From positions 96,001-160,000 of IMG/VR virus record IMGVR_UViG_3300032233_002382: 64,000 nt of DNA; one strand, given 5' to 3'. Under the pieces are notes generated by a model that was not told the DNA's origin, ran no database searches, and worked only from the letters and a program-made list of their open reading frames with translations. The DNA comes from a virus. Its lineage: Duplodnaviria > Caudoviricetes. Both the position numbers and the translations under genes were made by a program. Positions 40,800-44,551 of the stretch are shown here, one piece after another. Within the stretch, counting starts at the first letter, position 1. Each line of letters begins with the position of its first letter.

Positions 40800-40809
40800 A
40801 GTGTATACT
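40800..40809 (+). promoter_or_regulatory. ARTGTAnnnT motif at the pcp / HD-cassette divergence
   Basis: AGTGTATACT in a 39-bp divergent gap; gives TATACT on + and TACACT on -. Confidence 0.5.
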
Positions 40810-40824
40810 CCTGCAGGAGAAAAA

Positions 40825-41454
40825 ATGGCTAACAGCTGGGACGAATTTTTAGGGTGCATTCAGGGCGACATTCGCAGATTAGACTCCGTGATTCGTTATA
40901 ACAGTATACCGGTGTTACAAAGGGAGTCTGTGGCGACTCACACCTTTTGGGTTACACTATATGCGATTTTGATTCACAGACACATTCATAAGGGTGGCAC
41001 CGCGTCTCATGTGGAGCAGGAAATAATGCTAGCAGCGTTGACTCACGATTTGGCTGAATGTGTTACTGGTGATGTTGTTAGAACATTTAAGTACTCGAAT
41101 CCGGAGTTAAAGAGGTGTATTGACGAATCCGAGGATATGATGGTCGTTAGATATTTTCCGGAAGCTCTAAAGTCGATCATGAGGGACAGTGATCGAATCT
41201 ATTCATCGAGTAGCGGACAGTATGTGAAGTCGATTATTAAAGCAGCAGACTTCACGTCCTTGTTTATGTTTATGAATCGAGAATGGATCAGGGGGAACCG
41301 TGAGATAACGCCCTTCATCAAACGAATGGTCCGTGATTTAGAAGCGTTTGCGTATGTAGATGAATCGGCTGAGTGGTACGATAAAGAATTAAGCCACCTC
41401 TATCATTTAATGTCCGAGCAAGCTCTGTGCGTACCCCCTAACCGCGAAGTGTAA
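40825..41454 (+). CDS. HD-domain nucleotide phosphohydrolase (YfbR/DatZ-like)
   Basis: IRY..ESVATH, LTHDLAECVTGD, FKY and KAAD motifs; AGGAG SD before ATG 40825. Confidence 0.85.
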   Translation: MANSWDEFLGCIQGDIRRLDSVIRYNSIPVLQRESVATHTFWVTLYAILIHRHIHKGGTASHVEQEIMLAALTHDLAECVTGDVVRTFKYSNPELKRCIDESEDMMVVRYFPEALKSIMRDSDRIYSSSSGQYVKSIIKAADFTSLFMFMNREWIRGNREITPFIKRMVRDLEAFAYVDESAEWYDKELSHLYHLMSEQALCVPPNREV

Positions 41455-41462
41455 AACCCATC

Positions 41463-41963
41463 ATGCTTATCGAAGAGAGAAACGTCGTCCAAGCACGAGT
41501 TGACGAACTTGATCGCCTTATGAACCAGATACCTGATGGAGGGTTACCAGAGACCGTTCGTTCGTATCTGTTAGCGAGGAAAAAGGAGCTCGAGGATCTG
41601 GGGGTTCAGTCGCAGGATCCCATCCTCACCTCGGTGATACGGTCGCATAAAGCGATATGTGCGGCAAAAAACATGGAAGAGAAGGCCGCGTATGGTCAAG
41701 ATCCGGCGGTTTATTACTCTCTAGGCATTTGTGGTGAAGCTGGAGAACTGGCCAACAACGTAGTTAAGAGTCTCCGGAATGGATGGGATCGTGTCCGTAT
41801 ATTAGAAGCCGTTAAAGGCGAGTTGCCTGACGTAATCATATATTCTTACATTCTGGCCTATGTACTAGATATAGATCTCACTAAATTAGTAAACGAGAAA
41901 GTCGAGATCGTTATTAAACGAGCGAACGCCGGGTACTACGGCGGTGAGATAGGTAAATCATGA
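41463..41963 (+). CDS. MazG-like NTP pyrophosphohydrolase
   Basis: GEAGELANNVVK..GELPDVIIY..LA..LDIDL...NEK acidic helical motif. Confidence 0.8.
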   Translation: MLIEERNVVQARVDELDRLMNQIPDGGLPETVRSYLLARKKELEDLGVQSQDPILTSVIRSHKAICAAKNMEEKAAYGQDPAVYYSLGICGEAGELANNVVKSLRNGWDRVRILEAVKGELPDVIIYSYILAYVLDIDLTKLVNEKVEIVIKRANAGYYGGEIGKS

Positions 41964-43027
41964 GGCTCGGATTGACGTTTGATGATGTGCTCTTGGTACC
42001 TCAGCACAGTGCAGTTCTTCCGAGTGGTGTCGATGTTTCGACGAAGTTTAGTCGGAACATCGACATGTCCATACCTATTTCTTCGAGCGCTATGGACACA
42101 GTTACCGAATCTGCGATGGCGGCAGCCCTAGGACAACTAGGCGGTGTGGGCGTAATTCACAAAAATAACTCGATTGACGAACAAGTATCACTTGTGCAGA
42201 CTGTTAAGCTTTACGATCCTTCGCTAACGATCTGTGCTGCGGTAGGAGTGAGTGATGATTGGAGGAAGCGTACCGAGTCGCTTATTAAGGCTGGTATAAA
42301 AGGAATAGTCTTAGATTCTGCTCATGGTCATTCGGAGAATGTGCTGGTAGTTGCCAAGACAATTAAGCGAGACTATTCGGAAGTCGATGTGATCGTCGGA
42401 AACGTAGCGACTGCTTCGGCAGCTCAAGCACTCTGTGACATCGGGATAGATGCGATCAAGGTCGGGATCGGTCCCGGATCGATATGTACTACTAGGATCG
42501 TCGCGGGAGTTGGAGTACCTCAACTAACCGCTATTCTGGATGTGGTACCGGTAGCAGATCGTTATGATATTCCGGTTATAGCAGACGGTGGCATAAAGCA
42601 TTCAGGCGACATCGTTAAAGCTTTAGCCGCAGGAGCCGATTCCGTAATGATTGGAAGCCTCTTAGCGGCAACCGATCAGTCTCCAGGTGCTGAGTTCGAA
42701 TCCGATGGGATCCGGTACAAGTCATATCGGGGAATGGGATCTGAAGCGGCGATGTCCAAGGGATCTAAAGACCGATATTTCCAGTCTGAGTCTACAAAGT
42801 TCGTACCTGAAGGTGTTGAAGGGGCGGTTCCACTTAAAGGCGCTACAAAAGACGTGATATTCCAGTTGGTCGGAGGTCTCAGAAGCGGGATGGGCTATTG
42901 TGGCGCAAAGAATCTAGCCTCGCTTCGTTCGAATGCCGAGTTCATTCAAATCACGACCGCTGGACTATCTGAGTCTCACGTTCACGGTCTTAGTTCATTT
43001 AAGAAATCGTTAAACTACGGAATTTAA
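41960..43027 (+). CDS. guaB: IMP dehydrogenase lacking CBS domains
   Basis: [56 protein letters not shown] and PEGVEG. Confidence 0.95.
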
Positions 43028-44551
43028 ATGCAAAAGATTCTAATAGTAGACTTTGGCTCACAATACACCCAGTTGATTGCTAGGCGGATCAGGTCTTTCA
43101 ACGTGTTTTGTGAAATTGTGTCGTGTAAAACTGATTTAACGCCACATTTGACCAAAGATACTCGAGGAGTGATTCTTTCTGGCGGACCTGCAAGCGTCAA
43201 CGATCCAGGCGCACCTCAGCTCGATATGCGATTGCTAGAAATTGGTGTGCCGGTTCTAGGTATATGCTACGGATTTCAGCTCCTGGCTAAGTCTCTAGGA
43301 GGTGAAGTATCCAAATCCGATTCGCGAGAATATGGCTTATCTTATTTGATTCCGGATGAAGAGTATTATCTTAAGTCTGATGCGGATTCTCAGGTCTGGA
43401 TGTCTCATGGAGATAAAGTAACCAAGCTTCCTAATGGCTGGGTTCGAATTGCTTCTACAAGCACTTGCGAATTCGCGGTTGCCGAAGATATTAGTGGACT
43501 TATTTGTGGAATTCAGTTTCATCCAGAAGTGACTCATACACCTGACGGGTCTAGAATCCTTAAGGAATTCGTGCGTTCTTGCCGAATTTCGAGCGAATGG
43601 ACGAGCCAATCATTCATCGATAAGGCGGTTGAAGACATTAAAATCACTGTTGGATCTGATAACGTGATTTGCGCTTTGTCCGGTGGAGTCGATAGTGCAG
43701 TTACGGCAGCTCTTATATATAAAGCCATAGGAAGCCAGCTTACTTGTGTGTTTGTAGATAACGGTCTTATGCGACATAATGAAAGACATGATATAGAAGG
43801 CACATTTTCTTCAATGTTCGGAGGTTCCTTTCATTGCACCGATGCGGGTTTAGAATTCCTGCACGCCCTGCAAGGTGTGTCTGATCCGGAGCAAAAAAGA
43901 AAAATCATCGGACATAAATTCATAGAAGTATTCGATAGATTTGTTGCTGAATCCTCCATCGAATATAAGTTTTTAGCCCAGGGCACTTTATATCCAGATG
44001 TCATCGAAAGTACCAGCGCCAATGGGCCTAGCGCAGTAATCAAGAGTCATCATAATGTGGGAGGACTGCCAGAAGGCATTAAATTTTCGCTATTAGAGCC
44101 GCTGCGCTATCTATTTAAGGATGAAGTTCGTGAAGTAGGTCGGTCACTTGGCATAGATTCGAAAATTATTGATCGACAGCCTTTTCCAGGACCAGGATTG
44201 GCGATCCGCATATCAGGAGCCGTCGATGAGCTTAAGCTAAGTATTCTTCGCAGGGCAGACCTGATTGTTCGTGAGGAAGCGGCTAAGAGAGGACTCGACA
44301 AAACGACTTGGCAATGTTTTGCGGCTCTTCTGCCGATTCGCACGGTCGGCGTAATGGGCGACGGTCGGACTTACGATTATATGGCTTGTTTGCGAGTTGT
44401 AAACAGCGAGGATGGAATGACGGCCAGCGTGCCGTGGCCGATTGAATTCCTCGAACAAACCAGTTCGAGGATTGTTAACGAGGTCAAAGGAATAAATCGA
44501 GTAGTTTACGACATTACGACAAAGCCGCCATCTACCATCGAACTCGAGTGA
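43028..44551 (+). CDS. guaA: GMP synthase (glutamine-hydrolysing)
   Basis: DFGSQYTQLI, LGICYG, QFHPEV, LSGGVDS, QGTLYPDVIES, IKSHHNVGG, FPGPGLAIR and KPPSTIELE. Confidence 0.95.
   Translation: MQKILIVDFGSQYTQLIARRIRSFNVFCEIVSCKTDLTPHLTKDTRGVILSGGPASVNDPGAPQLDMRLLEIGVPVLGICYGFQLLAKSLGGEVSKSDSREYGLSYLIPDEEYYLKSDADSQVWMSHGDKVTKLPNGWVRIASTSTCEFAVAEDISGLICGIQFHPEVTHTPDGSRILKEFVRSCRISSEWTSQSFIDKAVEDIKITVGSDNVICALSGGVDSAVTAALIYKAIGSQLTCVFVDNGLMRHNERHDIEGTFSSMFGGSFHCTDAGLEFLHALQGVSDPEQKRKIIGHKFIEVFDRFVAESSIEYKFLAQGTLYPDVIESTSANGPSAVIKSHHNVGGLPEGIKFSLLEPLRYLFKDEVREVGRSLGIDSKIIDRQPFPGPGLAIRISGAVDELKLSILRRADLIVREEAAKRGLDKTTWQCFAALLPIRTVGVMGDGRTYDYMACLRVVNSEDGMTASVPWPIEFLEQTSSRIVNEVKGINRVVYDITTKPPSTIELE

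Follow-up and report, generated by a model that had tools for sequence, protein, structure and literature searches.

A four-gene operon with a CBS-less IMP dehydrogenase and a GMP synthase may supply guanine nucleotides for 2-aminoadenine DNA in a megaphage with a predicted PurZ

Four genes of nucleotide metabolism lie head to tail in the DNA of a very large phage, of at least 308 kb, and they raise the question of what this virus would do with both enzymes of the pathway from inosine monophosphate (IMP) to guanosine monophosphate (GMP), encoded directly behind two predicted nucleotide hydrolases. We addressed this question in a stretch of 64,000 nucleotides (the window), which comprises bases 96001-160000 of a 307,777-bp IMG/VR virus record, coded here as G000. 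A look-up of sequencing runs listed one DNA data set for it, probably that of the source sample, and no RNA data set. An open reading frame (ORF) scan showed the four plus-strand genes head to tail, with minus-strand genes on either side. An 8-nt gap separates the HD and MazG-like genes, the MazG-like gene and guaB overlap by an ATGA, and guaB abuts guaA; the four genes are one operon. A previous sequence-only reading of this DNA had described four tightly linked plus-strand genes with the same overlap and abutting junction, which the ORF coordinates bear out, except that it gave the first gap as 9 nt. Our answer to the question, to which we assign a probability of roughly 0.55, is that a feedback-blind line from IMP to GMP, together with hydrolases of deoxynucleoside triphosphates and monophosphates (dNTPs and dNMPs), serves the synthesis of 2-aminoadenine (Z) DNA. 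The genes on which this answer turns are as follows.

40825-41454, plus strand (ORF open from 40687): HD phosphohydrolase of the YfbR/OxsA/DatZ type, 209 aa
41463-41963, plus strand: MazG-like NTP pyrophosphohydrolase, single-domain and all-alpha, 166 aa
41960-43027, plus strand: GuaB (IMP dehydrogenase), naturally without the CBS/Bateman domain, 355 aa
43028-44551, plus strand: GuaA (glutamine-hydrolysing GMP synthase), with complete GATase and ATP-pyrophosphatase domains, 507 aa
G000:3879-5054, minus strand, outside the window: PurZ-type gene, whose top NCBIfam model is PurZ

The 355-aa protein scored 434.5 bits on the IMP dehydrogenase (IMPDH) model TIGR01302 and 205 bits on GMP reductase models, and its identification as a GMP reductase was rejected on these scores. 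The absence of the CBS part explains why it does not reach the equivalog cut-off of 481.5: TIGR01302 was matched in two stretches that skip positions ~90-211, and there was no PF00571 match. The protein aligned end to end with the engineered CBS-deleted IMPDH 5UPY, with a short linker exactly at the site where the engineers had excised the Bateman module, confirming the earlier statement that GuaB has no CBS regulatory domain. The phage enzyme thus shares its deletion site with engineered CBS-deleted bacterial IMPDHs (PDB 5UPY, 4MY1 and 4Q32); unlike these it is natural, and a member of a CBS-less clade of megaphage proteins. The catalytic Cys loop and the flap Arg-Tyr dyad (DRY) are intact in it and invariant in eight megaphage GuaBs. 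In cellular IMPDHs the Bateman/CBS module is the route of allosteric control by adenine and guanine nucleotides, and IMPDHs from which it has been deleted remain active but escape this control. As it has no such module, the phage GuaB should by analogy run feedback-blind.

GuaA matched NF000848 over residues 4-507 at 704.5 bits (cut-off 400), and both PF00117 and PF00958 were present. GuaB and GuaA are intact enzymes for the conversion of IMP through xanthosine monophosphate (XMP) to GMP. Among 50,697 GenBank phage records, 18 contained GuaA matches, all at ~50% identity or less; judged by their names and sizes, these 18 look like pieces of host DNA or contaminants, which would leave no bona fide phage GuaA in the set. 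A megablast of the whole cassette against GenBank phages gave no match, and single-sequence scans of IMG/VR yielded nothing usable with GuaA and only one relative, a CBS-bearing one, with GuaB.

The sequence-only reading had found no purZ in the window, and this is true; a search of the whole genome located the gene elsewhere in the record. The protein's top model was the PurZ model NF038379 at 194.2 bits, with 185.9 bits for archaeal-type PurA, and it matched the PurZ structures of phiVC8 and S-2L in a single stretch. It also matched 213 GenBank phage records, all at <60% identity; the 30 matches listed were phages of hosts known for PurZ, with most of the genes annotated as 2-aminooxy adenylosuccinate synthetase or adenylosuccinate synthetase. 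We compared its signature residues in a joint alignment that included the PurZ proteins of S-2L, phiVC8-like, Acinetobacter and Burkholderia phages. The P-loop reads GSSGKG in this phage, GSEAKG in the PurZ0 of a Gordonia phage and GDEGKG in the canonical PurA of marine viral contigs, so that a Ser takes the place of the PurA Asp. The following loop is TTVTKRIRR in this phage, TTVTN in PurZ0 and GATTGR in canonical PurA. The donor-base motif is LNFIQY, as against LSMADQ in PurZ0, with N-F-x-Q replacing the GTP-specific NKxD of canonical PurA. The PurZ signature PIRVGN is likewise found in the protein, and the signature residues were invariant in 20 megaphage homologues. We therefore predict from these residues that this adenylosuccinate synthetase (AdSS) homologue, the only one in the genome, is a PurZ-type succino-aminodeoxyadenylate synthase rather than a PurA. 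Only in the megaphage PurZ-type clade is the TTVT loop preceded by 13 inserted residues, GMPPEEAKALAER (~283-299 of the G000 protein), which are absent from the S-2L, phiVC8-like, Acinetobacter and Burkholderia phage proteins.

Other genes that a pathway to Z would use are present in the record. PurB was found at 446.6 bits (cut-off 326), as was a class I ribonucleotide reductase (RNR). Directly upstream of purZ lies a DNMK-like gene (G000:C1:5066-5851, minus strand, equivalent to L001:1950-2735, minus strand), which matched the Pfam model of T4-type dNMP kinase at 27.1 bits, exactly at the cut-off; relatives also have it beside purZ, and its product is a candidate for the kinase of dZMP. No guanylate kinase was found in the genome in a search that was itself uninformative. 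The family A DNA polymerase (PolA) was considered as a DpoZ-type enzyme and rejected, as Klenow and Taq polymerases were its nearest relatives and no DpoZ was among the matches listed. The ends of the record (1-900 and 306140-307777) adjoin in the relatives G004 and G005 by synteny, which places purZ ~10 kb from the RNR; the record may be near complete or circularly permuted, though CheckV estimates it at 72%.

The proposed role follows from the demand that Z would create. The base composition is 26.9% A and 22.9% G per strand, and if Z replaced A, all DNA purines would have to pass through the guanylate branch, amounting to 50% of bases instead of ~23%, a 2.15-fold demand. GMP made by GuaB and GuaA would feed both dG and Z, by a route leading from GMP through GDP to dGDP (by RNR), on to dGTP/dGMP, then to dSMP (by PurZ), dZMP (by PurB) and finally dZTP. 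A deregulated line from IMP through XMP to GMP would relieve the IMPDH bottleneck and keep both dGTP and dZTP supplied. Less firmly, the MazG-like enzyme might convert dNTPs to dNMPs and pyrophosphate (dGTP to dGMP for PurZ, and/or dATP to dAMP), and the YfbR-like HD protein might dephosphorylate unwanted deoxyadenylate, so that the two together would fill the jobs of DatZ and of MazZ or DUF550 with non-orthologous proteins. Of the options that the sequence-only reading had offered, the supply of a modified-purine precursor is the one that our results favour, and the purine can now be named as 2-aminoadenine, given the PurZ-type and PurB genes of this genome, with Z itself inferred.

The two hydrolases were examined by sequence and by predicted structure. 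The HD protein probably starts with the ATG at 40825, which has a GGAG upstream. It matched the YfbR-like family PF12917 at 69.6 bits and phrog_7076 at E 1.6e-20, and is the sole DatZ-like gene in the 308-kb record; a single-sequence scan of IMG/VR with it gave nothing usable. Its AlphaFold2 (AF2) model (pLDDT 93.8) had YfbR as best structural match (E 5.9e-6, TM 0.71), with Lin2634 and OxsA also ranking above DatZ, which came 12th, and a phmmer search of the PDB found YfbR and not DatZ. In an alignment with four DatZ proteins, the metal and phosphate ligands (in S-2L DatZ numbering R19, H34, H66, D67, E70, D75, K81, K116 and D119) were all kept in the window protein and in its homologues from the relatives G001 and G002.

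The MazG-like protein matched PF12643 at 26.6 bits, just below the cut-off of 27, and a tblastn search of phages with it gave no match. Its AF2 model (pLDDT 92.4) consists of helices only, the all-alpha NTP-pyrophosphatase fold, to which an N-terminal extension of ~50 aa adds two more. The family comprises 197 proteins, mainly on megaphage contigs, and the acidic metal ligands (ExxE ... ExxD; E92, E95, E120 and D123) were invariant in 40 of its members. The best structural matches were DCTPP1 (TM 0.70, 27-31% identity), the mammalian form of which differs in lacking the two-helix extension, whereas S-2L MazZ (7ODY) ranked 47th with a TM of 0.45.

The cassette is not peculiar to this record. 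Two metagenome contigs, L059 and L062, carry all four genes in the same synteny and with the same flanks as in the window, a divergent Peptidase_C15 gene upstream and dCTP deaminase (DCD) and PolA genes downstream, and their GuaBs are 70% and 67% identical to that of the window. The four genes therefore do co-occur in related phages, whose failure to do so would have counted against the earlier proposal. The run and the assembly that yielded these two contigs also contain the closest PurZ orthologues (80-81%), a co-occurrence at the level of the sample and not of the contig. In the relatives G001 and G002 only the HD-MazG pair was found, and mazG there abuts the counterpart of the window gene that comes next after guaA, so that guaB-guaA was inserted or deleted at that exact point. 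HD-MazG is the older, clade-wide pair, with guaB-guaA directly behind it in this lineage. PurZ, PurB and GuaA were not found in G001 and G002, fragments which by synteny do not cover the purZ region.

To place the cassette among phages with PurZ, we surveyed 24 large PurZ-bearing contigs, 11 of them complete. Adjacent HD and MazG genes were present in 6/24 (36-55% identity to the window proteins), a CBS-less GuaB in 3/24 (49-54%), a more divergent IMPDH-like gene in 2/24 (39-43%), GuaA in 2/24 (47-51%) and PurB in 5/24 (41-45%). In one 62-kb fragment (G043), GuaA, GuaB, PurB and PurZ all lie inside 32 kb. We count this clustering, the recurrence of the cassette in L059 and L062 and the adjacent HD and MazG genes of the six contigs for a role of the cassette in Z synthesis. 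The CBS-less GuaBs of megaphages formed a single supported clade (96/91), which also counts for this role and indicates that the gene was acquired once, long ago, and was later moved or lost. The PurZ-type gene family itself is large, with >2000 proteins at E<=1e-20, from which 47 IMG/VR loci were retrieved (L063-L109); the best 120 proteins are 63-81% identical, and their contigs reach 445 kb, several of them bearing direct terminal repeats. By its gene content, the PurZ-type megaphage clade as a whole may have 2-aminoadenine in its DNA.

Several observations weigh against this reading. The DatZ residues that read base and sugar are changed in the window HD protein and its G001 and G002 homologues (W20 to Y/F, I22 to S/T and P79 to T), and these are residues to which the dATP specificity of DatZ has been assigned, I22 excluding the 2-amino group (PMC8065100). 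The 50 members of the HD subfamily share R-[YF]-S-[ST]-I-P (Y in 37 and F in 13; S in 38 and T in 8), a motif that also sets them apart from YfbR of Escherichia coli, a 5'-deoxynucleotidase and the nearest solved relative, which carries R-W-P-L. Likewise, the Asp by which MazZ-1 recognises guanine (PMC8342488), D60, ten residues past E50, is an Ile in ELPDVIIYSYIL, the two extra C-terminal beta-strands of MazZ-1 have no counterpart in our helix-only model, and DCTPP1 is the nearest solved relative. The suggestion that HD is DatZ and MazG is MazZ thus stands at the level of the superfamily and no further: the HD protein of the megaphage subfamily is not a DatZ orthologue and the MazG-like protein is not a MazZ orthologue, and by sequence and model we class them as a predicted hydrolase and a predicted pyrophosphatase, whose substrates cannot be read from their sequences. 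At the genome level, the PurZ-type protein falls under the NCBIfam PurZ cut-off (194 vs 300 bits) and forms its own deep clade, and the cassette lies ~130 kb from purZ. In the complete PurZ-bearing genomes GuaB was present in 4/11 and GuaA in 2/11, and since most do without them, the cassette is accessory and not a requirement of PurZ-bearing megaphages. Co-occurrence inside one clade is, moreover, not independent evidence, and Z in this phage's DNA is a prediction from gene content.

These points bear on an alternative in which the operon is generic auxiliary purine metabolism, raising GMP and GTP and tidying dNTP pools to sustain a very large phage through replication, transcription and translation, with no special tie to PurZ or to base modification. 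The viral contigs of IMG/VR had at least 549 stretches with CBS-less IMPDH-like genes, which score best on the IMPDH model. Among 13 marine contigs with such a gene that were examined, six also carried an AdSS gene, in every case a canonical PurA (GDEGKG, GATTGR, NKxD), which shows that phages also pair IMPDH with the normal AMP branch; no GuaA was found in these six. Doing without the CBS domain is therefore common to phages in general, and the presence of an IMPDH does not in itself imply Z; GuaA is far less common. A generic purine supply suffices to explain GuaB, which counts against our reading. The lack of GuaA and GuaB in most PurZ megaphages and the distance between cassette and purZ point the same way. 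It counts against this alternative that the sole AdSS homologue of the genome is of the PurZ type, that GuaA is missing from bona fide phages among the 50,697 GenBank records yet recurs in PurZ megaphages, that GuaA, GuaB, PurB and PurZ cluster in G043, and that guaBA is joined to a pair of dNTP hydrolases close to the replication module. We regard it as the main alternative, though the less likely of the two.

The marine contigs are also of interest in their own right. The short canonical PurA and CBS-less IMPDH-like genes lie at L205:2875-3876 and 7731-8771 and at L206:2569-3570 and 8285-9328, ~4-5 kb apart in these two contigs, with further pairs in L207-L210; two of the marine contigs are complete (168 and 190 kb). 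With such a pair, its members often a few kb apart, a phage has an enzyme for each of the two branches that leave IMP, a situation unlike that of PurZ. Like the phage studied here, these phages have AdSS and CBS-less IMPDH genes in one genome, but theirs is a canonical PurA for the normal AMP branch without GuaA, whereas here a PurZ-type protein occurs with GuaA.

The three remaining explanations are weaker. In the first, GTP would be raised and (p)ppGpp hydrolysed by the MazG-like enzyme, so that the stringent response is manipulated and the host kept growing. E. coli MazG can hydrolyse ppGpp, and loss of the CBS domain frees IMPDH from nucleotide control, which is the background that speaks for such a role. 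The MazG-like protein is single-domain and DCTPP1-like, in contrast to the tandem-domain bacterial MazG, and its pairing with a 5'-deoxynucleotidase-type HD protein, beside dCTP deaminase and DNA polymerase genes, points to deoxynucleotide metabolism. Control of the alarmone, as well as the interference with myxobacterial development hinted at in the sequence-only reading, found no support in any result, and we regard this explanation as improbable. In the second, the operon would counter host defence, either by recycling RADAR-type (d)ITP through IMP into guanine nucleotides or by offsetting a dGTPase. The pathway is plausible, as IMP is the substrate of GuaB; against it, neither hydrolase has an ITPase (Ham1/RdgB) signature, and HD-MazG is a clade-wide pair beside replication genes rather than part of a variable anti-defence island. 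No result, in searches that did not extend to the PADLOC library, supported the recycling of defence-made ITP, which we think very improbable. In the third and weakest, the operon would supply GTP, the precursor of preQ0, for a 7-deazaguanine (preQ0/archaeosine-type) modification of the kind known from some phage DNAs; the absence of preQ0 genes, already noted for the window, extended to TGT/DpdA, QueC and FolE (GTP cyclohydrolase I) in the 308-kb record, in searches whose controls matched, which largely refutes this alternative and in effect removes it.

The supply of guanine nucleotides for Z synthesis can be compared with the Z-clusters of S-2L and phiVC8, which consist of PurZ, DatZ and MazZ (PMC8342488, PMC8065100). 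Our phage shares with them the PurZ-type signatures, an HD and a MazG-fold protein side by side and, as proposed, the same logic, in which dATP would be removed and dGMP made to feed PurZ. It differs in that its HD and MazG-like proteins are not DatZ and MazZ orthologues and are not adjacent to purZ, in a genome ~7 times larger, and in encoding its own PurB, GuaB and GuaA, for which known Z phages use those of the host. Z phages have repeatedly recruited unrelated dATP and dGTP hydrolases (PMC12884076), and DUF550, DUF5664, DutZ and DmtZ exemplify the pattern of recruitment after the acquisition of PurZ that we propose here; the protein family in our phage, of predicted activity, is another one, and upstream enzymes from IMP to GMP have not been described in those phages. 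Reliance on the host for PurB and kinases has been reported for known Z phages (10.1101/2025.10.22.683976). In our literature search, guaB or guaA was not found in Z phages and no link of 2-aminoadenine or PurZ with IMPDH or GMP synthase appeared; PurZ and jumbo phages came up together only in work on phages with dU-DNA, and adenylosuccinate synthetase and huge phages only in work on other subjects. The enzymes themselves are ordinary, and it is their combination and genomic setting that would, provided that Z is confirmed, add a new version to the Z-genome toolkit.

One cultured phage may be a convenient model in which to study Z in a large phage. Flavobacterium phage MaF61 (PQ858689.1, 167.8 kb) carries, at L055:7983-9326, an AdSS homologue annotated 'putative adenosuccinate synthetase', with the PurZ-like motifs GSSGKG, TTLTK and NFVNY and a long insertion, situated among RNR, terminase and capsid genes.

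The surroundings of the operon in the window include one possible regulatory feature.

40781-40809, plus strand: weak sigma-70-like promoter candidate, uncertain, TTCATA-17-TATACT, containing AGTGTATACT

This candidate has 9/12 consensus positions and sits within the 5'-terminal part of the divergent Peptidase_C15 gene, and comparable sites were no commoner in the sequence than in shuffles. The sequence-only reading had set the operon behind a AGTGTATACT motif. The motif is present at 40800-40809, with 5 matches at <=1 mismatch against 2.9 expected, a count reached in 18/100 shuffles, and no conservation of it was seen ahead of the same cassette in L059 and L062; as it was neither enriched nor conserved, we rejected it as a regulatory motif.

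The Peptidase_C15 gene, a pyroglutamyl peptidase (40171-40800, minus strand), diverges from the operon. A carbon-nitrogen hydrolase gene (44891-45646, minus strand) and a ferritin-like gene (38069-38563, minus strand) are also near the operon, and the peptidase and carbon-nitrogen hydrolase genes are kept beside HD-MazG in several relatives. Farther along lies a gene whose product weakly matches sigma-70 region 2 (48037-48696, minus strand). The dCTP deaminase and the family A polymerase lie a few kb from the operon. The dCTP deaminase-like gene (PF22769, 130 bits; 50053-50601, minus strand) overlaps a 182-aa ORF without a Pfam match (50594-51142, minus strand), and the two just precede the polymerase gene (51401-54250). 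This is followed by a full-length DnaJ (54204-55292, plus strand) with J domain, zinc-finger centre and C-terminal domain.

Known Z-genome phages are small, at ~40-70 kb, and to our knowledge have been described as borrowing all guanylate synthesis from the host. We tentatively extend the proposal to a clade of 300-445-kb megaphages that would have 2-aminoadenine in place of adenine, some members of which, including this one, would encode a near-complete route from IMP to dZMP (CBS-less GuaB, GuaA, RNR, PurZ, PurB and dNMP kinase), with DatZ and MazZ replaced by a non-orthologous pair of an HD protein and a DCTPP1-like MazG protein; we give this wider proposal somewhat under an even chance. 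If the generic explanation should hold instead, natural CBS-less IMPDHs would still be documented as a widespread phage auxiliary gene. If the proposal is true, replacement by the Z base reaches phages of 300 kb and more, and Z genomes would for the first time be seen beyond small sipho- and podoviruses. The bottleneck of passing all purines through IMPDH would have been solved by a captured, deregulated IMPDH and a GMP synthase, the first phage-encoded guanylate supply line, and a third, independent pair of pool-shaping hydrolases would have been recruited. The enzymes would then be usable for the production of Z-DNA in vivo, and a large uncultured clade of phages would be marked as a candidate for modified DNA.

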